Below, one piece after another: positions 4,236 to 63,524 of a stretch of 64,000 nt of DNA. Source of the stretch: an uncultured Candidatus Saccharibacteria bacterium (lineage in GTDB: Bacteria; Patescibacteriota; Minisyncoccia; UBA6257; JACRHY01); the NCBI GenBank assembly GCA_964360035.1, contig CAYHUJ010000001.1, positions 2,176 through 66,175 of the forward strand, read 5' to 3'. The position numbers and the translations under genes are program-made. Numbering within the stretch: the stretch's first letter is position 1; every line of letters starts with the position of its first letter. The notes under the pieces are model-generated. The model worked only from the letters and a program-made list of their open reading frames with translations. It searched no databases and was not told where the DNA came from.

Positions 4236-4889
4236 ATGGAATTAAAAGTTCAAAAAAGAGAAAAATTCGGGAAGCAACTGGCGGCTTTGAGGAAAAGCGG
4301 CCTTTTGCCGGCGGAGCTTTATGGCCACGGCATCGGCAATCTTCATTTAAGCGTTCCGGCCAAAGAATTCGCCAAAATTTTCAAAGAAGCGGGAGAAAAC
4401 TCCGTCATTGATTTGCTGATTGACGGCGAAAAGCGGCCAGTGATGATTTATGACGTGGATGTTGATCCGCTGAAAAACGAACCGCGGCACGTTGATTTTC
4501 ATCAGGTGAGAATGGACGAGAAAATCAAAGCCGAAGTGCCGCTCGGCTTTATCGGCGAGTCGCCGGCGGTGAAAGAAAAAGGCGGCGTGCTTATCAAAGC
4601 CCTTCACGAAATAAAAGTGGAGGCGCTTCCGGCGGATATTCCGCATGTCGTGGAGGTAAACTTGGGGGCGCTGACTGAAATCGGTGCGGCTATTCATATC
4701 AGAGATCTGGATTTGCGGACGGTCGGCAAAGTGAAGATTTTGGACGAAGCGGACGCCGTTATCGCGACCGTTTCCGCTCCGGTCGTTGAAGAAGAGGCGC
4801 CGGTTGTCGAAGCGGCTCCCGAAATCGTCGTCACCGAAGGAGAAGAGAAGCGCGCCCAAAAAGAAAAAGAAAAAGAGGTCGCGGAGTAA
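4236..4889 (+). CDS. rplY: 50S ribosomal protein L25 / general stress protein Ctc
   Basis: N-terminal MELKVQKREKFGK...LR.SG.LPAELYG pattern with an acidic C-terminal tail. Confidence 0.85.
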   Translation: MELKVQKREKFGKQLAALRKSGLLPAELYGHGIGNLHLSVPAKEFAKIFKEAGENSVIDLLIDGEKRPVMIYDVDVDPLKNEPRHVDFHQVRMDEKIKAEVPLGFIGESPAVKEKGGVLIKALHEIKVEALPADIPHVVEVNLGALTEIGAAIHIRDLDLRTVGKVKILDEADAVIATVSAPVVEEEAPVVEAAPEIVVTEGEEKRAQKEKEKEVAE

Positions 4890-6451: not shown

Positions 6452-7033
6452 TCAATCTTTGATTTTTTTGATGCCGACCCAGATAAGGGCGGCGAGCGAA
6501 AATCCCAGAATTACAAAGCGCAGATAATCGTCCATCTGCGACCAGTATTTCGCCGTTCCGACAAGAATCGCCAAAAGTCCTCCAAAAGTGAACCCCAAAG
6601 AAACCGCTTCGGCCGTCGTTAAAATGATTCCGCCGGCGAGAGCGGCTACTCCGATGATCACCCAAACAAGAAAAACGTTTCTTCGGTAAAGATTATCGGC
6701 GGCTTCAAATTCCTTTCCGCACCGGTAGGCGGTGTCGCACCATCCATTCTGCCGGGGATAAAGAGTGGGAGCCGGCGCCGCTTCCGGATAGGCGGGAACG
6801 GCTTTCAGGGGCACCGGTTCGCCGAATTCCCGGTTGTCGTTCCATCGCTCGCCAGCCTCTTCGCATGATTCTTGATCGGTATGCTGACGAGCCGCTTTTT
6901 CTCCGCAAAAGTCGCCCCAGACGGGCTGTTTTTTATAAAGCGTGTCTATGCCGTAATTGACGAAAAGATTAAATACGACGACTATGGCCAGAACGAGGGC
7001 CGTTTTTTTGAAATTTATTTGCGGCAGTTGCAT
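6452..7033 (-). CDS. Hypothetical membrane protein
   Basis: N-terminal TM segment plus two C-terminal TM segments; Cys/Trp-rich middle region. Confidence 0.5.
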   Translation of the reverse strand: MQLPQINFKKTALVLAIVVVFNLFVNYGIDTLYKKQPVWGDFCGEKAARQHTDQESCEEAGERWNDNREFGEPVPLKAVPAYPEAAPAPTLYPRQNGWCDTAYRCGKEFEAADNLYRRNVFLVWVIIGVAALAGGIILTTAEAVSLGFTFGGLLAILVGTAKYWSQMDDYLRFVILGFSLAALIWVGIKKIKD

Positions 7034-7034
7034 A

Positions 7035-7691
7035 TTATTTTTCTTCTATTGAAACGGATGTTAATTTTACGGGATTGACCGGCGTCGATTTTTCGCCGAG
7101 AGAGTTCGTTTTAACCGGCGCCTGCGCTATGTTATCAACGGCTTCCATTCCGCTGACGACCCGTCCGAAAATTACGTAGCTTTTCGGCAGGGGATAATCC
7201 CGGTGCATTATGAAAAACTGGCTGCCGTTCGTGTTCGGACCGGCGTTCGCCATCGCCACGATACCGCGGGAATAATCGCGGGTTATTTTTTCATCGGCAA
7301 AGCGGTAACCCGGACCGCCGGTGCCGTCTCCTTTCGGATCGCCGCCCTGAATCATGAAGCCGCTGATGGCTCGGTGGAAAATCGTGCCGTCGTAAAATCC
7401 TTGTCGCGCCAGAAAAACAAAATTATTTGCCGCTATGGGTGTTTCGGCGGAGAATAATTCTATTTTCGCGTCGCCCTCGGAGGTTTTTAAGGTCGCGAAA
7501 TAGCGCTTGTCGGCGTCAATTTCCATTTTCGGCGGCTGGTTCCACTGCATATTTGTTGTTTCTATTAATTGGTTATGGCTTGACGCGCCGTTCGCCGGCG
7601 CGCTGTTTTTTGGAGCAAGATAAATTTTTGATCCCGCTATCGCGGCGGCGGTTATCAAGGCGATTGCGGCGTATTTTATCCATCCGTTCAT
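7035..7691 (-). CDS. ppiB: Peptidyl-prolyl cis-trans isomerase, cyclophilin type, secreted
   Basis: FHRAISGFMIQGGDP and GSQFFI cyclophilin motifs, with an N-terminal signal/TM segment. Confidence 0.85.
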   Translation of the reverse strand: MNGWIKYAAIALITAAAIAGSKIYLAPKNSAPANGASSHNQLIETTNMQWNQPPKMEIDADKRYFATLKTSEGDAKIELFSAETPIAANNFVFLARQGFYDGTIFHRAISGFMIQGGDPKGDGTGGPGYRFADEKITRDYSRGIVAMANAGPNTNGSQFFIMHRDYPLPKSYVIFGRVVSGMEAVDNIAQAPVKTNSLGEKSTPVNPVKLTSVSIEEK

Positions 7692-8898: not shown

Positions 8899-11560
8899 AA
8901 GCAAAATAAATCTTCGAATGTTCAATCTTCGGACGTCCGACGTCCGAAGATTGGGGGTGGTGGTTGTTGCGACGCTTGTTTTTATTTTTTATTCCGGCGA
9001 AGTTTCCGCCGCTACGCGTACTTGGGACGGCGGGGGAGCCGATAACAACTGGTCAACGGACGCCAACTGGTCTGGTGATCGGGCCCCGTCTCTCAACGAC
9101 GATGTAGTCTTTGACGGCACTTCGGTGAAGAATTCGGCAATGGACAGCGGGTTGACAATCCTAAGCTTCAATGCCAGCTCCACTTACACCGGAGCGTTGA
9201 GTATCGCCAATGGAAACACCTTGACGGTAACCGGCAACTGGACATATAACGCCGCCAATTTTGACGCCGGCACATCCACGATAAAATTTACCGGCAACAC
9301 TGCTACTTTCACTCCCGGCGCTGTCAATTACTATAATCTTGAAGTGGCAAAACCTAGCAGTGGCTCCGACCTCAATATTTCCGGCACCGCCACCACTACC
9401 AATGATTTAATTATCAGCGCCGCCAACGATGACACCAATAACATCAACACCGGCACCGTCAATGTGGGCCGCAACGTCAGCATTACCAACGCTAATTTCG
9501 GAGGCGGCACGGCAACGGTGAACATGAACGGCTCCGGCAGTCAAAGCGTTTCGTCAAGCGGCGGCTGGCTACCTAATTTTTCCGTGAACAAGTCAGCCGG
9601 CACTCTTAGTTTGATTGGTACTGTTGTAATCGGAGGAAACTACACTCACACCGCCGGCACCGTTGACGCCGGCACTTCCACCCTGAAGTTTGTTGGCGGT
9701 ACCACTACTTTCACTCCCGGCGCTGTCAATTACTATAATCTTGAAGTGGCAAAACCTAGCAGTGGCTCCGACCTCAATATTTCCGGCACCGCCACCACTA
9801 CCAATGATTTAATTATCAGCGCCGCCAACGATGACACCAATAACATCAACACCGGCACCGTCAATGTGGGCCGCAACGTCAGCATTACCAACGCTAATTT
9901 CGGAGGCGGCACGGCAACGGTGAACATGAACGGCTCCGGCAGTCAAAGCGTTTCGTCAAGCGGCGGCTGGCTACCTAATTTTTCCGTGAACAAGTCAGCT
10001 GGCTCCACCACTATTGATAGCAATGTACGGGTGGGCGGGACATTGACGGTTACCGCCGGCGAGCTGCGCCACAACGCTTATACTCTACAAATTGACGGCG
10101 GAACGACGATTTCCTCCGGCGGAACGTTTTCCGATTACGCGACCGCTTCCAGCACGATTAAATTCGGTTCCACGATCACGAACAATGGAACGTTAATTTT
10201 GAACGGCGGAGGAACAAGTTGCGGCGACTTTGACTATGTTCTATTGCGTTCCACCGCCGACGGCACCCAGCGTTCCTGGTCCGGTTCCGGAACCTTCAAC
10301 ATCCAGGATGCCGACCTGAAAGACATGGGAGCAACCAGTGGTACCGTAACAGTTCGCAGCGGCACGAACTCCGGCAATAACGGCGGTTCGTGGACTTTCA
10401 ACTCCAACTGTCTTCCTTCCGCTTCCTTTGACAACGATTTTTCTTCCTGGAGCTCCGGCAACGCTACCGTCAATTACAAACTGATTGACCCCAATTCCGA
10501 CGCGTCCAATATCTCTCAAACGGCCGATTCAGGGATGGAATATTCCGCCGACGGCTCAACTTATTCGGACGCGACGCAGGGAACGGGAGGGGATGGAATG
10601 ACCAGCCTTTCTTCATCCGCCTCGCCCGGAACGTCTCATTCTTTCGCCTGGGCCAGCGCAACCGACCTGCCGAACACTGAAGATCTAACCGTCTATCTGC
10701 GCATTCGTCCCAATGACGGCAGTGAAAACGCTTCCGACTGGGCGACCTCCTCCGCTTTCGCGATTGACAACGTCGCCCCATCTTCCGTCGGCGCCCCGAC
10801 TTTCGGAACAATCACCTCTTCTTCCGTTGAAATCGTCAAGCCGACAGCTGTTACGGAAAACGGCTCCGGCCTCAATACCTGGCAGGCGAGAAGAGATTCG
10901 GCAACTGTCCTTTCCGCCGTCGCCACCACCACGGCTTCCGTCTCCGATTCTTCTTTGTCGGCGAATACCCAATATGCCTATGACGTCCGGTTCGCCGATT
11001 ACGCCGCCAACGCTTCCGCTTACGGGACGTCCGCTTCCAAATACACCCTAGCTCCGACTCCGGCTAATCTGGCCGCCGTCGCGGCAAGAATTTCCATCAC
11101 TCTTTCCGTTGACCAATTCACCAACGATACCGCCGGCTCGTCCGGATACTACTTCGTCAATTCCACCGCCTCCACCACCTCCGGCTGGATCCAGGCGAAC
11201 TTCTGGACCGACACCGGCTTGACCTGCGGCGTTTCCTATTCTTACACGGTCAAACACAGAAACGGCGACGGAACGGAAACGTCAACCGTTTCTCTTGACG
11301 CTTCAGCGTCCGCCTGCCAGTCGGAAACGGCCGCCCGGGTGTCTTACGCGATATCCCCGCTGAGAATTTACGACGCGCCAAAGCCGGAGAAAGTTTTGCC
11401 TATTCCCGCTTCGGAAGTTTATCGGGACAAAGCGACGCGGATCGCCGAGCTGCAAACGCAAATCCGGCAGCTGCAAGCGCGACTTCTGGATCTTTACCGC
11501 TTCCTGCTTCAGGCGTTGATTAAAGAGCTGGAGGAAAGATCGGGACGTATAAATTTTTGA
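8882..11560 (+). CDS. Large secreted surface protein/adhesin: signal peptide, autotransporter-associated beta-strand (PATR-like) motif, tandem beta-rich repeats, FN3-like domains, C-terminal coiled coil
   Basis: MFNLRTSDVRRLGVVVVATLVFIFYSGEVSAA looks like a signal peptide. TRTWDGGGADNNWSTDANWSGDRAPSLNDDVVFDG matches the PATR consensus. T/S/G/N-rich repeats are followed by FN3-like segments. Alternative start ATG at 8918. Confidence 0.7.
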   Translation: MFIWNKSKINLRMFNLRTSDVRRLGVVVVATLVFIFYSGEVSAATRTWDGGGADNNWSTDANWSGDRAPSLNDDVVFDGTSVKNSAMDSGLTILSFNASSTYTGALSIANGNTLTVTGNWTYNAANFDAGTSTIKFTGNTATFTPGAVNYYNLEVAKPSSGSDLNISGTATTTNDLIISAANDDTNNINTGTVNVGRNVSITNANFGGGTATVNMNGSGSQSVSSSGGWLPNFSVNKSAGTLSLIGTVVIGGNYTHTAGTVDAGTSTLKFVGGTTTFTPGAVNYYNLEVAKPSSGSDLNISGTATTTNDLIISAANDDTNNINTGTVNVGRNVSITNANFGGGTATVNMNGSGSQSVSSSGGWLPNFSVNKSAGSTTIDSNVRVGGTLTVTAGELRHNAYTLQIDGGTTISSGGTFSDYATASSTIKFGSTITNNGTLILNGGGTSCGDFDYVLLRSTADGTQRSWSGSGTFNIQDADLKDMGATSGTVTVRSGTNSGNNGGSWTFNSNCLPSASFDNDFSSWSSGNATVNYKLIDPNSDASNISQTADSGMEYSADGSTYSDATQGTGGDGMTSLSSSASPGTSHSFAWASATDLPNTEDLTVYLRIRPNDGSENASDWATSSAFAIDNVAPSSVGAPTFGTITSSSVEIVKPTAVTENGSGLNTWQARRDSATVLSAVATTTASVSDSSLSANTQYAYDVRFADYAANASAYGTSASKYTLAPTPANLAAVAARISITLSVDQFTNDTAGSSGYYFVNSTASTTSGWIQANFWTDTGLTCGVSYSYTVKHRNGDGTETSTVSLDASASACQSETAARVSYAISPLRIYDAPKPEKVLPIPASEVYRDKATRIAELQTQIRQLQARLLDLYRFLLQALIKELEERSGRINF
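8924..8952. repeat. REP-C: AATCTTCGGACGTCCGACGTCCGAAGATT, inside the 5-prime end of the surface-protein ORF (encodes NLRTSDVRRL)
   Basis: Exact reverse complement of REP-A. Confidence 0.8.
9262..10065. repeat. Tandem duplication with a 402-bp period; cores 9303-9597 and 9705-9999 are identical (295 bp)
   Basis: The identical 64-aa antisense ORFs at 9331..9525 and 9733..9927 in the ORF track are offset by 402 nt. The protein repeats a roughly 134-aa unit. Confidence 0.85.
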
Positions 11561-18219: not shown

Positions 18220-18627
18220 TCATTCCCTGTTTAAAACTTTCGTTCCGGAGGCGATGGCGCCGCCGACGAGCAGAAAGATAATCCCCGTCGCGAGGACGGA
18301 CTTGTCCCAGGCGCCGAAATTCGCCGCCGCCGTCGTCACGGCCATCAGAAAGAAAGCGCCGATAATGGCGCAAAGACGGGCGGTAATCCCGCCGGCGAGT
18401 GTTGCGCCGAAAGGCGGCGGCGGCTTTTTTTCCGCCGCGGCAATGATTCTCGCGATTTTAATTTCCAGCGCGAAGCAAAGCAACCACGTCGTGGCGGCGA
18501 TGACGTAAAACCAGAAAAGCAATTTCGTTCCGTCGGCAAGCGCCGCGGCGGCGGATTCGCCGGAGAAGGCCGCGACAAAAAGCATTATCACGGTAAAACC
18601 GAACGCTCCGACTGAAGCGCAAATCAT
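18220..18627 (-). CDS. Hypothetical 4-TM membrane protein
   Basis: Hydrophobic profile; ATGA overlap with the upstream gene. Confidence 0.5.
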   Translation of the reverse strand: MICASVGAFGFTVIMLFVAAFSGESAAAALADGTKLLFWFYVIAATTWLLCFALEIKIARIIAAAEKKPPPPFGATLAGGITARLCAIIGAFFLMAVTTAAANFGAWDKSVLATGIIFLLVGGAIASGTKVLNRE

Positions 18628-41843: not shown

Positions 41844-41914
41844 TGCCGGGTCATCTAACGGTAGGATACATGACTCTGAATCATGTCATCTTGGTTCGAA
41901 TCCAAGCCCGGCAG
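41844..41914 (+). tRNA. tRNA-Gln (anticodon CUG)
   Basis: Cloverleaf folded by hand. Acceptor TGCCGGG/CCCGGCA with the U1-A72 pair typical of tRNA-Gln. Anticodon stem CATGA/TCATG with loop CTCTGAA. T arm CTTGG-TTCGAAT-CCAAG. CCA is not encoded. Confidence 0.7.
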
Positions 41915-42137
41915 CAAAATATAGCACGGCGAGATTTTACTGCGTATTTAGAACGCTCCCAAACTTCTGAACTTATTTTACCAAATCTGATACACAAATC
42001 CGAGAAAAGCGTTAAAAAATTATGGAAATTATGAGAAGTGAAAATCGCTACAAAAAATTAAGGAACAGTCCGTTTCCGTCACGTGGATGGTAAAGAAAAT
42101 TTAATCAGAGAATTCAGAAAGTTTTTATAAATCCCCA

Positions 42138-47941: not shown

Positions 47942-48330
47942 GCTGGCGAGACAAGTCGGCGAGCAATAAGCCGGATTCTGTTTCCCTTGATAAACTTGGG
48001 ACGACGATAATTTATCTTGATCGGGACGTTGCCGTCCGATTCTGTGCGGCATTCCCCCGCCTTGCGGCGGAAGCTCAGCCTTGCACCGGATAGGAGTTTT
48101 CCAGCCGCCGGTGTCGCCGCCGTCAGCCGTGAGCTCTTACCTCACGATTTCACCCTTACCCCTTGCCGAAGCTCGGGGCGGTATATTTTCTGTTGCACTT
48201 TCCGTGGGATTGCTCCCCGTCGCCGTTAGCGACTATCGCTATCCGAATTTTTAACGATTCGGATGGTGTCCGGACTTTCCTCTCCGCCAAAAGACGGAGC
48301 TATCGCCTAGCTTGCCGGCTTGTCTCGTCA
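47942..48330 (-). ncRNA. rnpB: RNase P RNA, bacterial type A
   Basis: The reverse complement contains GGAAAGTCCGGAC (P4 5-prime strand), GTGCAACAGAAA, AGGGTGAAATCGTGAGGTAAGAGCTCAC and ACAGAATCCGGCTTA (P4 3-prime strand). The P1 pairing is CGAGACAAGCCGGC / GCCGACTTGTCTCG. There is a roughly 440-nt gap with no ORFs on the correct strand. Confidence 0.85.
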
Positions 48331-57647: not shown

Positions 57648-57915
57648 AAATTTAAATTTTGATTAATTTCAGACGCGCAACGGCAGGATGGAGCCGCCGG
57701 TTTCAAAATAAACAAAAGACGGGCCTTTTACGATTATTATAGCAAAACCCGTTTTAACTTCAAATCCACATCCCGGTCCAAACGCATAGGCGTAAAACCT
57801 TATGTGTCTGGATTAGGGATGCTCCGCCGACGCCGTTCCCCCGCTGATATCATACGATTGCTTAATTTTTGAGCGGGCCGCCAGGCGAAGTTGAAACAGG
57901 CCCGGTTTGAATTTG

Positions 57916-57986
57916 AGCGGGATACGAGAATTGAACTCGCGTCTGTTGCTTGGGAAGCAACCGTACTGCCACCGTACGAATCCCGC
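57916..57986 (-). tRNA. tRNA-Gly (anticodon CCC)
   Basis: Folded by hand. Acceptor GCGGGAT/ATCCCGC. D arm GTAC-GGTGGCA-GTAC. Anticodon arm GTTGC-TTCCCAA-GCAAC. T arm GCGAG-TTCAATT-CTCGT. U73 discriminator as expected for Gly. No encoded CCA. Confidence 0.8.
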
Positions 57987-58028
57987 TCCAGTAATAAAAC
58001 CAAGTCAGTTTTCCCAAAATTTTTACGA

Positions 58029-58083
58029 GCAAAGCGGAGCTTTGCGGCGGCTGGCGGCGGGATTTTAGATGGCTTGCGGGGGG
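58029..58083. repeat. IR-L: left 55-56-bp inverted repeat (GCAAAGCGGAGCTTTGCGGCGGCTGGCGGCGGGATTTTAGATGGCTTGCGGGGGG)
   Basis: Its reverse complement occurs at 60070-60125 with one mismatch. Confidence 0.85.
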
Positions 58084-58091
58084 AAATTTCC

Positions 58092-58122
58092 TTGAACAAT
58101 CTTTATCTTGGTATGGTATAAT
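58092..58122 (+). promoter_or_regulatory. Sigma-70-like promoter just inside IR-L (TTGAAC -35; extended -10 TGGTATAAT)
   Basis: Motifs read from the sequence. The spacing is about 19 nt, slightly long. Confidence 0.4.
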
Positions 58123-58148
58123 GTATATGTAATCAATAAGTTGCTTTT

Positions 58149-59501
58149 ATGGAATCAACTACTTCATTTCTAATCGTCGCGCTTGGTTATCTTGCCTTTG
58201 GCATAGCGACGGTAATTTGGATAACCAAAAAGAAAAAGGCGGGCGAGAAGATTTCTTTGCTGGCAAAGATTATCATCGCCATGGTTGTTCTTTCCAGTTC
58301 TTCCGCTCTTCTTTCTGTAATTATTGAGCCGTCTCCGGAGCAGGAGACAAACGCTCCCGAAACCAGCACTCTTTACGTAAAAGAGGGAGGCGCGAATGTC
58401 CGCGAATGTCCTTCAACTTCGTGCAAAGTGATTAGCACGCTTCCCCAGAACGCGTGGTTCACGTTTTCGGGCGATTCTTACGACAAATATCCCAATTGGG
58501 CCGAAGTTACCCTTCTGGACGGGCGGGGCGGCTATGTGAGCAAAAGCACGCTTTCTTTTGAAGTATCCGAAGTGCCGCAGCCGCAAGAAAATGGAATCAG
58601 ATTGGCAAAATGGAACTTTGATCCGTTGGAAATCGACGGTTCGTATGGCATTTCGTTTTGCATTCCGGATTCAGCACGCTCCGGAGCAACCTGCGGCGGC
58701 CTTGCCGGAGACACCCAAACCCCGATCGGCGGTTCCCCGCCATATTCGTTCGTCAAAAGCTCCGGCTTTCTGCCGCCTGGAATGTCGCTTGAGCTGAACG
58801 GCCTGCTTTCGGGTTCGCCGACAACCGAAGGCACTTATAATTTTAAACTTTGCGCCAAGGATTTATCAATGAACCAGGGGTGCGAGAATTACACGCTGGT
58901 GGTGAAAAAAGAAGATTCAATTGCTCAACCTTCCTCTGGCGGAAATTATAAAGCAGTTTTGTCGTTTACTGCCGATATGCAAAATTATCAACGCAATAAC
59001 GATTCGCTGCTCGCTAATAACGAACATGTATCCGTGACAGTTACGGCTAGTAGATCAGAACAAGATGAACAGGGTAGTAAAAGTATCAGCAGTTATAATT
59101 TTTCTTCTACTGGACGAAGCAGTATTTACGTAAGTAGTAATTGTATATCGCAGTATAGCGGGACTTTTGGCGATAATTTGGACTCCGGACCAGGAGCCAT
59201 ATACGGTTATCTGCCTTCCCGTCCACTTATATTCAAAGCAAGAACAGGATACGCCGGGGATTATAGGGATTTTGATTATACGCCATTATCAGCAGATTTT
59301 TGTGCGACTTGGCCTCCGGATGTGTTCATAAGAGAGGTTTTGTCGGACATTATATCCGGCACAGGAGGGGGCATTGCCCTAGATCAACGCAGCTTGAATC
59401 CGGCAGGAGAAACTATTTCTTTTAGCAACGATTATCGTCCCGAACATTTAGCTACAGACAGAATTACTTATAACGGCACGCTGGTATTTACGAAAGAGTA
59501 A
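58149..59501 (+). CDS. Membrane-anchored surface protein with a bacterial SH3 (SH3b) domain and a putative Ig (dystroglycan/cadherin-like) domain
   Basis: Two N-terminal TM segments. SH3b-like LYVKEGGANVRECPSTSCKVISTLPQNAWFTF...YVSKSTL. PPYSF...LPPGMSL...GSPTTEGTYNF matches the putative Ig domain pattern. GC is lower than the core genome. Confidence 0.6.
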   Translation: MESTTSFLIVALGYLAFGIATVIWITKKKKAGEKISLLAKIIIAMVVLSSSSALLSVIIEPSPEQETNAPETSTLYVKEGGANVRECPSTSCKVISTLPQNAWFTFSGDSYDKYPNWAEVTLLDGRGGYVSKSTLSFEVSEVPQPQENGIRLAKWNFDPLEIDGSYGISFCIPDSARSGATCGGLAGDTQTPIGGSPPYSFVKSSGFLPPGMSLELNGLLSGSPTTEGTYNFKLCAKDLSMNQGCENYTLVVKKEDSIAQPSSGGNYKAVLSFTADMQNYQRNNDSLLANNEHVSVTVTASRSEQDEQGSKSISSYNFSSTGRSSIYVSSNCISQYSGTFGDNLDSGPGAIYGYLPSRPLIFKARTGYAGDYRDFDYTPLSADFCATWPPDVFIREVLSDIISGTGGGIALDQRSLNPAGETISFSNDYRPEHLATDRITYNGTLVFTKE

Positions 59502-59516
59502 CTCGTTTATCAGGGG

Positions 59517-59912
59517 ATGAAACTTCTCGATAAAAAATGGAAATGGGCGGCGGCGGTAATTTTGCTGCCGGTGGTTGTTATATTGATCGGGATCTACGTA
59601 TATTTTTTTTGGACCTGTTGCCCGGAGCCGGCAACTGAACGTTTAAGAGCTTCGTGTCAAGTGGAAGGAGGATTTTTTGTTGAAGAGTTGGAACAATGCC
59701 AACTGCCGGCATCGGACGCGGGGAAAACATGCAAAGATTCATCCGAATGCGAGGGTTTCTGCGAAGCGGATCTGTCCCCGGATGAAATATCAAAAATAAC
59801 CAACGGGGAACGAGTGGAAAAAACGGGCGCCTGCGGGCGGTGGAAAAACTTTTTTGCGGGATGTTTTTATATAATAGAAGACAGCGCGGTTGAGAGATTT
59901 TGCGCTGACTAA
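59517..59912 (+). CDS. Small membrane-anchored Cys-rich (10 Cys) protein
   Basis: TM segment, then a CC...C...C..C...C.C...C...C pattern suggesting a disulfide-rich ectodomain. Confidence 0.5.
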   Translation: MKLLDKKWKWAAAVILLPVVVILIGIYVYFFWTCCPEPATERLRASCQVEGGFFVEELEQCQLPASDAGKTCKDSSECEGFCEADLSPDEISKITNGERVEKTGACGRWKNFFAGCFYIIEDSAVERFCAD

Positions 59913-59924
59913 CGCCGAATTAAT

Positions 59925-60053
59925 ATGAAGAAACTTTATCTCATTTTAAAAATTCTGCTCATTCTGGCGGCTTTAATCGCGCTGGGCTATTTACTTACTC
60001 CCACCGACAGTGAAGTCATTTTGAAAAGGCCATGGCTTGAAAAGGCCGAATAG
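59925..60053 (+). CDS. Possible 42-aa hydrophobic peptide (MKKLYLILKILLILAALIALGYLLTPTDSEVILKRPWLEKAE)
   Basis: Hand-translated; below the ORF-track cutoff; immediately inside IR-R. Confidence 0.25.
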   Translation: MKKLYLILKILLILAALIALGYLLTPTDSEVILKRPWLEKAE

Positions 60054-60069
60054 TGTGAAAGGGGTTTTC

Positions 60070-60125
60070 CCCCCCGCAAGCCGTCTAAAATCCCGCCGCC
60101 AGCCGCCGCAAAGCTCCGCTTTGCC
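60070..60125. repeat. IR-R: right inverted repeat, reverse complement of IR-L (55/56 identical)
   Basis: Direct comparison of the two sequences. Confidence 0.85.
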
Positions 60126-60275
60126 CATTGTCCCAAGCCAATTCCGCTCGCTTCGCTCGTTTTTAGAGTGAGGTTCAAAAATTCAAAAGCCGAAGATTTT
60201 AAGGTACAACACTTGCCCCACCATCCCGTGCGCGTGTTAAAAACTTTTGCCGTCTTGAAAGACCGGCAAACCCCC

Positions 60276-63200
60276 TTATTTCCCGCGGCCAAGATTATTC
60301 CAATCTTTTTTCTTAAGGAGTTCAAGAACGGGTGCATCTTTCTTGTCTTTAGGAATAATAGGCATGGTCTCATCGTTTATACCTGCCATATCCAAATCGT
60401 TCGGACCTATTTCCCACGCCTCTCTATCGTTAAAGGATGTTTTAACAATACCTACATCAAACAGAACTCTGGGCTGGGGTTGGGTCCCATCAATGATTGC
60501 TGGTGCCAGTAAATAAATACCAAATCTTTTAAAGCTTGCTGAAAACATATCAAGATTTGTTGTGGCATCGGGGGTCAGGGTATGCACTCTCGACACAGTA
60601 ATAAGACGCTGATTCTTTGGCGGTCTTTTTGTAAGGTCAAGATTTGTAGTAACAACTGCACGATACCAAGCAGGATTTTTTTCTGAAACTCCTCGTATCA
60701 TCGAAATTCTAATCGTCTCATCCGCATCTTTTTCGCCAAATATACCTCTCCAATCCTTAAATATCGCTCTGGCTTTTTCTTCGTTTTTAAACAAGAAGGC
60801 CATTACAGGCGGACGGCTAGGTATTGTGATGTAAAGCACACCGCCCCAGCCCGCTTCGTCCCATAGATGTTGGCGGATTACCGAGACATTCTTAATTTCG
60901 TCATGCCGCTTTGGAGTACCAGAAGATTTTTCCTCACTTTCTTCTTTTTTAAATTCTTTGGTTTTAACAGGCTTTCCACTTTTTTCAGGGGTGTATGGAT
61001 ATAAAGTTGCCTCAGGATTTATCCAGTTAAGGATAGATCTTTTAGGGTTATACCCCAAGACATTTCCCAAAGTAACCATTGGCGTAGAGAAACTGAAGGC
61101 CCTAGAATTAACTTCCTCGTCTTTAAAAAGTTTGAGCAAATCAACGTCAGCATCTTTGAAAAGGACAGTGTTTGCAATCAGGTGCAATACAATCTCCGAG
61201 ATTTTAGAGGAAATTTTTTCCTGTTGCTCTTTTGAAAGAGAGTGAGGACTAAAAGAACCACAGGTAATAGCTATGCCGAATTTACCGTCTTTTTGAATCT
61301 CATATATTATTTCTTCCTTTAGTGATTCATCGCGTGTGATCGTGATATAGGCACTGCTGTCTCTTGAGGCGGCATCCATTTCCAAAGTGGTAGACAAAAA
61401 GCTCTCAAGAGCCGCGAGAACATACTCGCCGATTTCGATTTCGGGGCTACCGTTGGGTGCTTTGATAATATATTCGCATCCTAGAACGCTTGACCTTAAT
61501 TCCACTACTTCACCAATATAGTATTCTGGCGCGCTTGGCAGATTTTCTTGAGCAGGTTGGGAAAGATATGAATTGAAAAATTCATCAACTTCATCGGGAG
61601 GCATCTTTTCCTTAAAAGAATCTGGAACCATGTCTTTTCCACCAAGACGGTATAGCAAGCCAAAGGCGGCAAAATCTAGGTCCATCTGCATTAACGTATC
61701 GGGTAGTTTCTCTAATATTTTCAATTGCTCGTCAAGTGTTTTGATTACCAGCAGCCCCATAAGCGAACCAAAGAAAAGATCATCATTCAGTAGTTTTGAT
61801 TTTTGTTCATCTGTTTTTAAAAGTTGAGCAGAGAGAAGATGGTGAAGCTGATGCCACTCAAGTGCGTATCCTATTCGGCCTAATTGGACCTCAATAGTTC
61901 TCAATCTTTTGTAGCAAGCGAGCTGCATTGTGTTGATTTTGCTATACACCCAAAAATCACTTGTTGCATGGGAGGCGGCATTCAACAGTACGCCGCGAGC
62001 AGCCCAAAGTAGGCCAGCATCTTCATAGGCAAATGAAAGAGTGAATAGCGCATGAACTAGCTGGTCCTTGCTCTCTTTTTTGTAAAAACGCCTTAGCGCT
62101 CTACCGAGAAAATCTATAGCCTTGTAAGTTCTCCTGCCTTTTAAATGTTGGATTCCACGATTAAGGAGTATTTCACCTGCCGCAAGTTCTCCTTCTCTGT
62201 TCGTCACCACCTCAACCAGATGCTCTTGAAGTTCTTCGTAAGCGCTTTCACCATTGAATACGTCATCCATTTCATTCAAGAGCCGGAAGGTTATTTCAAA
62301 GGGGAAACCGATAAGGTTGCTGGCCTTATCCATCACATCTTTAAGTTGCCGAAATGCTTTTGCTACTTCTGCAGGGTCATCTCTTTTGCGTAAAAGATTC
62401 GCAAAACAGAGCATGGCTTCTGCGTGTACCGATGCACTGGAATTAGCCTTATTACTTTTATGGGTTTCCAGTTTTTCAAAAAGATTTTTTGTTTTTTCCT
62501 CAAGCATTTCAGGCGACACCAAGTTAGATGTGCCAGCAAGAGCGGACAGAAGACCCCAAAGATTATTCAGCCTTTCGGCGGAAAATATGTTATTTGAGGC
62601 AAGTGCAAGTTTTTCTATGGCATCGTACTGCTTTAAAAAGGCATTAAAATCTTCAAACCAAAAGAACGTGGTCCATGCTCGTTGATATAAAGCGGTGAAC
62701 TGTTGGTCGCTAGTGCCGTGCTCATTAGCAAATCGTATTGCACGATCAAATAAAGATTCGACATCCTGACGCGGCTCATCAAGCTCCGCAGCTATTAACG
62801 CCGCGTCTAAGCACTCGTCAACGGTTTTTATCGTGACACTGGACTTACTTACGTCTTCTGCGATAGAGGAATTTAATTCATCGAACTGCTTTTTTCTTTG
62901 TGAATCCAAGGGACCGGCTTCTTTTTTTTCCTCAAGCCCATCTCCCATTTTTAATTCTTCAATAGCAAGCTTCTGCCTTTTATTTGCAAAAACCTTATCA
63001 AGAATCCAATTCCTATCAAGGACAACAACCTGAAAGCTGTATTTTTTAGACAATTCGTCCTCCAGAGTTGCTCTTGTTTTGTCCCTCGCAAATTCACTCG
63101 TTATACAAAAGACTTTTGCGTAAGACCTGCCTGTTTTATGTATTTCTTCGGTGTCGCTTCTAATTTTTCCTGACCAATCTTTTTGAGTGCTAAAAGCAAA

Positions 63201-63524
63201 GGCAAAATCTTCCTTGCTTTGATTGTCCTGACCTTGGAAAAAAGCACTTCGTATTTGAGAAGCGACAGGGATTGTAGATGAGTCAACTTTGCTATCGCCG
63301 CCGCCCGTAGAGCCAGTTTGAGGTCGAAGGTTGGGGCAAATCTCGTATTGACAAAGCTTCCGCGCGAATTCTTCAAAATCCTGCTCCTGTTTTCTTTGCC
63401 CCAAGGTATCTAAGTGATACTCAAGGGTCGTACGGTTTAGTTTGCTCTCCGTTACTATTTTTGAATCAGAAAACCTGTGAGGTTTTCTTTTTTTCATAAA
63501 ATCTTTTGGGGACGGAATACTCAT
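60276..63524 (-). CDS. Large (1082 aa) protein: N-terminal Mrr-type PD-(D/E)xK restriction-endonuclease catalytic domain plus a roughly 880-aa helical region of unknown function; no Walker A motif
   Basis: N-terminal DFEEFARKLCQYE...GSTGGGDSKVD...FAFSTQKDWSGKIRSD...AKVFCITSEFARDK...QVVVLDRNWIL follows the Mrr_cat consensus as I recall it (FEe..a.ll..lGy.....g.sgDgGiD..., vQcKr, ifvTtssFs.eA). About 40% GC. The start codon abuts the stop of the upstream HEPN gene. Confidence 0.7.
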   Translation of the reverse strand: MSIPSPKDFMKKRKPHRFSDSKIVTESKLNRTTLEYHLDTLGQRKQEQDFEEFARKLCQYEICPNLRPQTGSTGGGDSKVDSSTIPVASQIRSAFFQGQDNQSKEDFAFAFSTQKDWSGKIRSDTEEIHKTGRSYAKVFCITSEFARDKTRATLEDELSKKYSFQVVVLDRNWILDKVFANKRQKLAIEELKMGDGLEEKKEAGPLDSQRKKQFDELNSSIAEDVSKSSVTIKTVDECLDAALIAAELDEPRQDVESLFDRAIRFANEHGTSDQQFTALYQRAWTTFFWFEDFNAFLKQYDAIEKLALASNNIFSAERLNNLWGLLSALAGTSNLVSPEMLEEKTKNLFEKLETHKSNKANSSASVHAEAMLCFANLLRKRDDPAEVAKAFRQLKDVMDKASNLIGFPFEITFRLLNEMDDVFNGESAYEELQEHLVEVVTNREGELAAGEILLNRGIQHLKGRRTYKAIDFLGRALRRFYKKESKDQLVHALFTLSFAYEDAGLLWAARGVLLNAASHATSDFWVYSKINTMQLACYKRLRTIEVQLGRIGYALEWHQLHHLLSAQLLKTDEQKSKLLNDDLFFGSLMGLLVIKTLDEQLKILEKLPDTLMQMDLDFAAFGLLYRLGGKDMVPDSFKEKMPPDEVDEFFNSYLSQPAQENLPSAPEYYIGEVVELRSSVLGCEYIIKAPNGSPEIEIGEYVLAALESFLSTTLEMDAASRDSSAYITITRDESLKEEIIYEIQKDGKFGIAITCGSFSPHSLSKEQQEKISSKISEIVLHLIANTVLFKDADVDLLKLFKDEEVNSRAFSFSTPMVTLGNVLGYNPKRSILNWINPEATLYPYTPEKSGKPVKTKEFKKEESEEKSSGTPKRHDEIKNVSVIRQHLWDEAGWGGVLYITIPSRPPVMAFLFKNEEKARAIFKDWRGIFGEKDADETIRISMIRGVSEKNPAWYRAVVTTNLDLTKRPPKNQRLITVSRVHTLTPDATTNLDMFSASFKRFGIYLLAPAIIDGTQPQPRVLFDVGIVKTSFNDREAWEIGPNDLDMAGINDETMPIIPKDKKDAPVLELLKKKDWNNLGRGK

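Follow-up and report, generated by a model that had tools for sequence, protein, structure and literature searches.

A surface-protein operon framed by inverted repeats beside a tRNA-Gly gene in a patescibacterial genome

Among DNA segments that are bounded by inverted repeats and tied to surface structures are the invertons, including the Hin, Gin and Cin segments, the fim switch and the invertible promoters of Bacteroides. In the known switches the sites are short (about 9-30 bp), a dedicated recombinase is encoded next to them, and inversion splits a promoter or coding part from its partner. Gene modules that have no recombinase of their own also occur between inverted recombination sites, as in the Xer-dependent pdif modules found in varied contexts on Acinetobacter plasmids, and the insertion sequences (ISs) IS1397 and ISKpn1 insert in the loops of repetitive extragenic palindromic (REP) elements, so that half of a host palindrome comes to lie on either side of the inserted DNA. 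Palindrome arms are kept identical by gene conversion in the human Y and X chromosomes (PMC3723533, PMC8981503), as in the plastid inverted repeats with their flip-flop isomers, and Wolbachia ISs have been inverted by ectopic recombination between their terminal inverted repeats (TIRs) (PMC3004938). The locus described here invites comparison with all of these. It is a three-gene surface-protein operon lying between two inverted 58-nt arms beside a tRNA-Gly gene, in a 64,000-nt stretch of DNA (hereafter the window) from an uncultured Candidatus Saccharibacteria bacterium (assembly GCA_964360035.1, contig CAYHUJ010000001.1, positions 2,176 to 66,175 of the forward strand). The organism is a groundwater bacterium of the Parcubacteria type. 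Our tentative reading, to which we give a probability of about 0.4, is that this is a discrete, non-autonomous cassette framed by a palindrome, the arms of which would exchange sequence through host recombination, with occasional inversion or relocation as possible by-products. The features of the cassette are as follows, in window coordinates; GC stands for guanine-plus-cytosine content.

58029-58086, left arm (IR-L): 58 nt, 64% GC
58093-58122, plus strand, promoter-like site: TGAACA, an 18-nt spacer and TG-n-TATAAT, 10 of 12 matches, with the upstream TG
58149-59501, plus strand, g1: membrane-anchored protein of 450 aa with an N-terminal hydrophobic segment and matches to SH3_3 (SH3b) and He_PIG (Ig-like)
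59517-59912, plus strand, g2: protein of 131 aa with an N-terminal hydrophobic helix and 10 cysteines
59925-60053, plus strand, g3: hydrophobic peptide of 42 aa with the motif ...DSEVILKRPW
60067-60124, right arm (IR-R): 58 nt

Repeat finding in the window places the arms 1980 nt apart and finds them complementary at 56 of 58 positions (97%), with mismatches at arm positions 42 and 56 and the T/C variant at 58070 and 60083; a weaker similarity of 73% carries them further in, as far as 58103 and 60049. Relative to shuffles, the regions upstream and downstream of the operon align in inverted orientation with a best z of 41. When the 64 kb were searched with a 55-nt arm pattern at up to 3 mismatches, the two arms were the only matches, against an expectation of 0 from 100 shuffles. 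Further copies were absent from the window and from 21 kb of the related contig L011, which means that the repeat is not a common intergenic one, and no additional copy of the arms or of their modules occurred in any sequence examined. An exact scan of the species genomes in GTDB, among which the window's organism is not represented, gave 0 matches to the 26-nt arm core. The initial annotation, made from the letters alone, had thus correctly seen near-perfect inverted repeats around a cassette of about 2.1 kb; only the detail changes, from 56 bp with one mismatch to 58 nt (58029-58086/60067-60124) with two. The outer 17 nt of IR-L are a perfect 7-3-7 palindrome, GCAAAGC-GGA-GCTTTGC, which is present at the outer end of both arms. 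The GC content of the arms is 64-67%, as against 46% in the operon and 26% in the promoter gap, a pattern that is compatible with biased gene conversion without proving it.

The position of the arms relative to the genes is precise. IR-L ends 6 nt ahead of the -35 element and IR-R opens 13 nt after the stop codon of g3, and the arms therefore bracket exactly one transcription unit. The gene content given by the initial annotation (a surface protein with SH3b and Ig-like domains, a small 10-Cys protein and a 42-aa hydrophobic peptide) holds, as does its statement that neither a recombinase nor a transposase lies inside; its outward-facing promoter was a mistake, since the site at 58093-58122 faces into the cassette, where it would drive g1. 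Comparison of g1 to g3 with Pfam, NCBIfam, PADLOC and PHROGs gave no match to a recombinase, transposase, phage or defence family. There were 0 matches either to the protein family and the conserved outer module in viral contigs or to the cassette DNA in plasmid and phage collections, and the cassette is therefore not a known phage or plasmid element. Rfam, run in gathering and E-value modes over the cassette and the related loci, returned tRNAs only. An integron gene cassette was considered and rejected, as the unit has its own promoter and two inverted arms and, by eye, no attC-like R''/R' core.

About 60 relatives of g1 are detectable, in genomes annotated as Kaiserbacteria, Liptonbacteria, Sungbacteria and other Patescibacteria. 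Downstream of g1, nearly all related loci carry a homologue of g2 and then one of g3; the g2 homologue (its N-terminus or the whole protein) directly follows g1 in most of them, g3 with its ...DSEVILKRPW motif is conserved, and an extended -10 element stands, by eye, at a matching distance upstream. Judged from these related loci, the three-gene unit is a conserved Parcubacteria operon with its own predicted promoter and not arbitrary cargo, because both the g1-g2-g3 order and the upstream extended -10 recur. The first 260 or so residues of g1, comprising the anchor, SH3b and He_PIG, are well conserved between lineages, and the C-terminal 150-200 residues are hypervariable and essentially unalignable. 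This family shape, a constant base with an unalignable C-terminus, resembles a variable receptor-binding or adhesin tip. Neither a reverse transcriptase nor silent copies are found near g1, and a search of the window for paralogues or silent cassettes found none.

The frame is not confined to the window. In about 15 lineages the 350 nt ahead of the operon and the 450 nt behind it were scanned for inverted similarity to each other; four of these lineages are framed, with arms of 48 to more than 150 nt:

Window: z 41, arms of 58 nt
L013: z 34, arms of 48 nt at 96%, plus an outer 30 nt at 100%
L025: z 84, arms of 110 nt at 92%, plus 40 nt at 90%
L022: z 110, arms of at least 112 nt at 100% (the contig begins within the arm)

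Ten other lineages have no frame (z below 2.3 in each), and the short homologue contigs of 2-3 kb carry no terminal inverted repeats, with the exception of the window's own Logan contig, L009. The geometry is alike in the four framed lineages: on its inner side the left arm stops a few bases ahead of the -35 element, and the nearest right arm lies 12-41 nt past the last stop codon. The arm sequences themselves differ by lineage: of the window's arms, just about 36 nt (81%) recur in L013, in a segment present once, downstream of the operon. In L013, L025 and L022 homology is limited to the cassette and its arms, the flanking genes being unrelated, and a right terminus reading ...ATACTC is common to all three. 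On a tree of the conserved part of g1 the framed lineages are scattered. An apparent 35-nt inverted repeat in L036 and L038 was rejected, as it proved to be a direct repeat of about 60 nt that contains a palindromic terminator and a tRNA-like 3' end. In L038 this repeat (4423-4800, 7000-7060; its tRNA-like 3' end is GGTTCGAATCCGCACCA on the minus strand) flanks the operon, and its left copy terminates a structured-looking sequence of about 340 nt without a match in Rfam or ARAGORN, which may be a tmRNA-like gene that has diverged and has undergone an att-type duplication.

An indication of exchange comes from L013, L025 and L022, where common arm modules allow orthologous arms to be compared. 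The identity of the two inner arms of one genome is 96% in L013, 90% in L025 and 100% in L022; between these genomes it is 59-79%. Across genomes, left arms are no nearer to one another than to right arms, and an 11-nt segment that is present in both arms of L013 is missing from both arms of L025. The arms thus cluster by genome and not by side, which points to repeated homogenisation between sequences 2 kb apart. Hairpins within and near the arms were also recorded. Smaller hairpins in the arms likewise change in concert: the 7-nt loop of the 25-bp hairpin has GTTCAC in L013 and L025 and is flipped (TGAACG) in L022. Downstream of the operon, a hairpin with an 18-19-bp stem differs in its stem sequences between L025 and L022. 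These hairpins and modules lie at L013 7852-7908, L022 66-90 and 2335-2425, L025 6910-7070 and L047 8100-8410. In L047 the order of the modules is reversed, and they may form the left arm of a second cassette.

In the mechanism we propose, a surface-protein operon beside a tRNA gene is enclosed by a GC-rich intergenic module with hairpins, which is present in two inverted copies. The arms would be kept alike by arm-to-arm recombination, either gene conversion by host homologous recombination or template switching, and this exchange could occasionally flip the operon; it may also permit the whole module to be inserted or replaced near the terminator hairpins of tRNA genes.

Several observations weigh against this reading. 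The nearest relatives of the window's operon, L044 (71% protein identity), L062 (72%) and L063 (66%), are unframed; concerted evolution of the window's own frame is therefore putative, and a recent duplication could also have produced it. The three lineages that do allow the comparison come from related aquifer datasets and have promoter and arm modules in common, and are therefore not fully independent. Proteins identical to those of the cassette are encoded on metagenome contigs of Hainich groundwater (wells H52 and H32, 0.1 and 0.2 µm fractions; short-read data ERZ1292616-22 and the SRR326966xx series, long reads ERZ1286166) and in Logan assemblies of later runs. Over 57850-60156 all 13 of the 13 short-read contigs, from several wells and years, are colinear with the window and 100% identical to it, and the configuration of single-nucleotide polymorphisms in the arms is the same in every contig. 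For this organism, then, exchange or inversion is something that we infer, and any adaptive role of the frame is putative.

The neighbouring tRNA-Gly and the flanks of the cassette can be compared with a second site.

57915-57986, minus strand: tRNA-Gly(CCC), 72-nt body (ARAGORN; Rfam tRNA, 58 bits)
57987-58012, plus strand: left flank tL, TCCAGTAATAAAACCAAGTCAGTTTT, a homologue of the 3' trailer that belongs to the second tRNA-Gly (L011 18779-18758, minus strand)
60125-60178, plus strand: right flank tR, CCATTG...AGGTTCAA, with inverted homology to the same trailer (L011 18724-18671)

The tRNA-Gly gene does adjoin the cassette, as first described, with one correction: the tRNA is on the minus strand, and the cassette therefore lies on its 5' side, with the operon divergent from it. 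The species has two copies of tRNA-Gly(CCC), which on the long-read contig L011 (9489-9572 and 18758-18853) stand in direct orientation, 9.2 kb apart and 96% identical. On the minus strand of L011 the trailer of the second copy is colinear with the window's flanks, TCCAGTAATAAA.CAAGTCA.TTTT corresponding to 57987-58012 and CCATTG...AGGTTCAA to 60125-60178. Between these segments L011 has 33 nt, including a 26-nt hairpin (CTTTCTTTGGCGAACGCCAAAGAAAG), where the window has 2112 nt made up of 16 nt, IR-L, the cassette and IR-R. On the right this difference stops exactly at the outer end of IR-R, and its left boundary lies 16 nt outside IR-L. By eye, the stem of the hairpin resembles CTTTGCGGCG/CGCCGCAAAG inside the arms, and the frame may therefore have descended from a terminator palindrome whose loop came to hold the operon. 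The hairpin-only site is paralogous and not allelic; no strain with an empty site was found when contigs were looked up through the cupin neighbour. It was also noted that the 72-nt tRNA-Gly body is flipped relative to the trailer-like sequence (TCCAGTAATAAA...) on its right, as if it had been inverted in place, and that the flipped body is bounded by a 9-bp inverted repeat, GAGCGGGAT/ATCCCGCTC.

Proximity to tRNA genes is usual in the family. In at least 10 of about 18 lineages the operon lies beside one (L012, L013, L017, L019, L020, L022, L025, L029, L044, where a partial tRNA at the contig start adjoins it, and the window), the neighbour being a tRNA for Val, Thr, Ser-GCT, Ser-GGA, Gly-TCC or Gly-CCC, or an intron-containing tRNA. 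The usual arrangement is a tRNA on the plus strand followed by the operon on the same strand with 67-213 nt between them, and all four arrangements occur across lineages. A direct repeat of the tRNA 3' end downstream of the operon, as at an integrase att site, was absent in the seven lineages inspected. A tRNA-targeted island was tried as an explanation for L011, where the two direct tRNA-Gly(CCC) copies bound 9.2 kb, but the trailers there are inverted. The span between these copies consists of the cassette, a restriction-modification island and a truncated serine recombinase.

Such a distribution can also be understood if the arms are TIRs that serve a transposase or recombinase encoded elsewhere, which would move the operon as non-autonomous cargo between sites near tRNA genes. 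The discrete boundaries speak for this, above all the paralogous trailer comparison that stops exactly at the outer end of IR-R, as do the three lineages that share only cassette, arms and the ...ATACTC terminus in unrelated neighbourhoods, the lack of an internal recombinase, and the many lineages in which the adjoining tRNA differs in identity. Several features tell against it. There is no target-site duplication, the window's flanks ...TTTTTACGA and CCATTGTCC... having no direct repeat in common, and none was seen in L013 either; a single arm pair is present in the 64 kb and the 21 kb; the length (48 to more than 150 nt) and sequence of the arms vary far past typical transposase-binding ends; the left boundary falls 16 nt outside IR-L; the plasmid, phage and viral collections have no match; and in most lineages the operon has no repeats at all. 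We consider trans-mobilisation unlikely, though a serious rival. Copy number in the complete genome would bear on the matter, many copies of the 58-nt arm and of GCAAAGCGGAGCTTTGC favouring a transposon and exactly two the frame proposed here. The specific suggestion of the initial annotation, an element derived from an IS or resembling a miniature inverted-repeat transposable element (MITE), finds no support in a locus without target-site duplication, transposase or further copies in the 64 kb and L011.

A second serious rival, again unlikely in our judgement, is that the frame is a passive relic, in which a one-off rearrangement, either an inverted duplication or an event that placed the operon in the loop of a terminator palindrome at a tRNA gene, left two inverted terminator-like modules with neither ongoing activity nor function. 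Each arm has hairpins, and those of L025 end in bidirectional terminators that serve the neighbouring genes; the paralogous trailer carries a simple hairpin, whose stem (CTTTGGCG/CGCCAAAG) resembles CTTTGCGGCG/CGCCGCAAAG inside the arms, a weak likeness judged by eye; the closest relatives are unframed; and the contigs give no sign of orientation polymorphism. A relic must nevertheless account for a frame in four lineages with arms grouped by genome and not by side, for which repeated homogenisation or repeated independent duplication would be needed.

It is improbable that the arms are symmetric protein-binding or insulator sites, at which the palindrome and the GC-rich arms would bind a regulator or block incoming transcription from both sides. 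The perfect 7-3-7 palindrome at both outer ends and the bidirectional terminators of L025 would suit such a role, but near-identity over 58-150 nt is far more than binding would require, conservation of arm sequence across lineages is lacking, and a simple scan found no canonical terminator in the window's arms.

Still less probable is a site-specific invertible segment that would make the surface protein phase-variable under an invertase encoded elsewhere, as the initial annotation had suggested. An inverted-repeat pair does surround a surface-protein operon, across lineages the operon and its adjacent tRNA show all four relative arrangements, and a serine recombinase is encoded about 6.5 kb rightward in L011. 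That recombinase, however, is a truncated N-terminal fragment of about 110-130 aa, and no invertase was found in or next to the cassette: recombinase genes are absent within about 10 kb to its left and about 6.5 kb to its right, and within 8 kb of the L013 cassette, and a Pfam scan of 57 further open reading frames (ORFs) of the window had no recombinase among the 25 of 62 families listed. The hix/gix and fim invertase sites are also much shorter and less variable than these repeats. With the promoter and all three genes inside the arms, a flip would carry them together without uncoupling them, and inversion would therefore not switch expression. At the left end, where the reference junction reads ...TTTTTACGA, arm, GGGGGGAAATTTCCTTGAACAATC, an inverted cassette is predicted to read ...TTTTTACGA, arm, GGGGGGGAAAACCCCTTTCACACTATTCGGCC. 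Every contig that links the cassette to a flank has one and the same orientation, a result that concerns assembled contigs, minority isomers being below this resolution. The contigs break in the duplicated tRNA-Gly or around 60157-60196, and a variant of 961 nt (L054) leaves the window sequence at 60157 for a different right flank, closer to the trailer of the second tRNA-Gly in L011; such breaks are strain differences outside the repeats and not inversions. The Logan contigs end within the arms because a 41-nt identical block there meets a k=31 graph, and hold no orientation information. The look-up through the cupin neighbour for inverted or empty-site variants led to contigs that simply break inside the duplicated tRNA-Gly. 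The phase-variable switch is thus not borne out, and for the frame a role in recombination or insulation is more likely than one as a regulatory switch.

Pairing of the 5' and 3' ends of the transcript at the RNA level, as in the processing stems around rRNA, is very unlikely, for although the tRNA gene just upstream on the same strand in L013 could allow read-through to take in both arms, IR-L of the window lies upstream of both divergent promoters and the arm mismatches (5 G.U-compatible, 7 A.C and 5 other) have no G.U bias on either strand, which together make exchange at the DNA level the better explanation.

The surroundings of the cassette have features of their own. To its right lies an island of low GC content (about 41%) that encodes a 1082-aa protein, a 188-aa ORF, a type II restriction endonuclease, a methyltransferase and a helix-turn-helix protein, beginning with the following gene outside the cassette:

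60276-63524, minus strand: 1082-aa protein, no family match

Both this protein and the 188-aa product (L001 15378-15944, minus strand) are without a match in Pfam, NCBIfam, PADLOC or PHROGs and are possible defence genes. In L011 the island is followed by the N-terminal 110-130 aa or so of the serine recombinase (18237-18619) and then by the second tRNA-Gly, and the simplest reading of the truncated gene is as what is left of the island's integrase, not as a cassette invertase. In L044, the closest unframed relative, a restriction-modification island comes directly after the operon. The island itself is flanked by inverted trailer sequences that are about 70% identical (window 60125-60200 against L011 18650-18724). 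Homology between L011 and the window begins at 57778, to the left of which L011 has a truncated ABC-permease gene (9100-9352); its left end represents either a different insertion context for the block of tRNA-Gly, cassette and island or an assembly chimera. A strong promoter-like site on the minus strand (57736-57763; TTGAAG, a 16-nt spacer and TG-TATAAT) lies just left of the 3' end of tRNA-Gly and upstream of the cupin, GT2, HIT and TIM genes. Farther away, a class A RNase P RNA (47952-48318, minus strand, 214 bits) and tRNA-Gln(CTG) (41844-41915, plus strand) are housekeeping RNAs that confirm a chromosomal context.

Attachment to host cells is the presumed way of life of the Candidate Phyla Radiation (CPR), or Patescibacteria, and host range is probably determined mainly by their surface proteins. 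The location of the g1 operon, with tRNA genes and defence islands alongside, is prone to recombination, and if the frame promotes flipping, replacement or relocation of the operon it would offer a simple route, without a dedicated enzyme, to diversify or exchange host-contact proteins in very small genomes. A bolder version, that Parcubacteria have a whole family of palindrome-framed surface-protein cassettes, each a self-promoted operon for a hypervariable adhesin-like protein between long, lineage-specific inverted repeats that arm-to-arm recombination keeps alike, and that these cassettes flip and relocate beside tRNA-gene terminators without a recombinase of their own, strikes us as rather unlikely; if true, it would amount to a recombinase-independent class of mobile or invertible modules for swapping host-contact proteins in ultra-small symbionts. 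Searches of the literature for invertons or inverted repeats in CPR/Patescibacteria gave no matches. Read conservatively, the locus is a clear bacterial case of short inverted repeats in concerted evolution around a functional operon, and such frames are not to be taken automatically as phase switches or MITEs.

Set beside the known systems, the cassette resembles the invertons as a segment that is bounded by inverted repeats and tied to a surface structure, but its arms are of 58-150 nt and lineage-specific, promoter and genes would flip together, and neither an intact recombinase nor a second orientation is seen. With MITEs and other non-autonomous TIR-bounded cargo it has in common the lack of an internal transposase, the inverted ends, the discrete boundaries and related copies in different neighbourhoods; it departs from them in the single copy seen, its variable arms, the missing target-site duplication and an operon that elsewhere is conserved mostly without repeats. 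The pdif modules have 28-bp XerC/XerD sites and reside on plasmids, whereas the present locus is chromosomal and its arms contain, by eye, nothing like dif. As with the elements that insert in palindromes, such as IS1397 and ISKpn1, a simple hairpin marks the corresponding paralogous site, but here the inserted DNA has no transposase and the likeness of the arms to the hairpin stem is weak. The Wolbachia elements are bona fide multi-copy ISs, unlike the present cassette with its lack of a transposase and of a copy family, yet they illustrate how host recombination between short inverted ends may flip DNA without a dedicated invertase. The palindromes maintained by gene conversion have arms of kilobases as against 58-150 nt in this bacterium, where no inversion isomers were observed; what the cassette shares with them is an identity between arms far above that between lineages, around a spacer that is potentially free to flip-flop.

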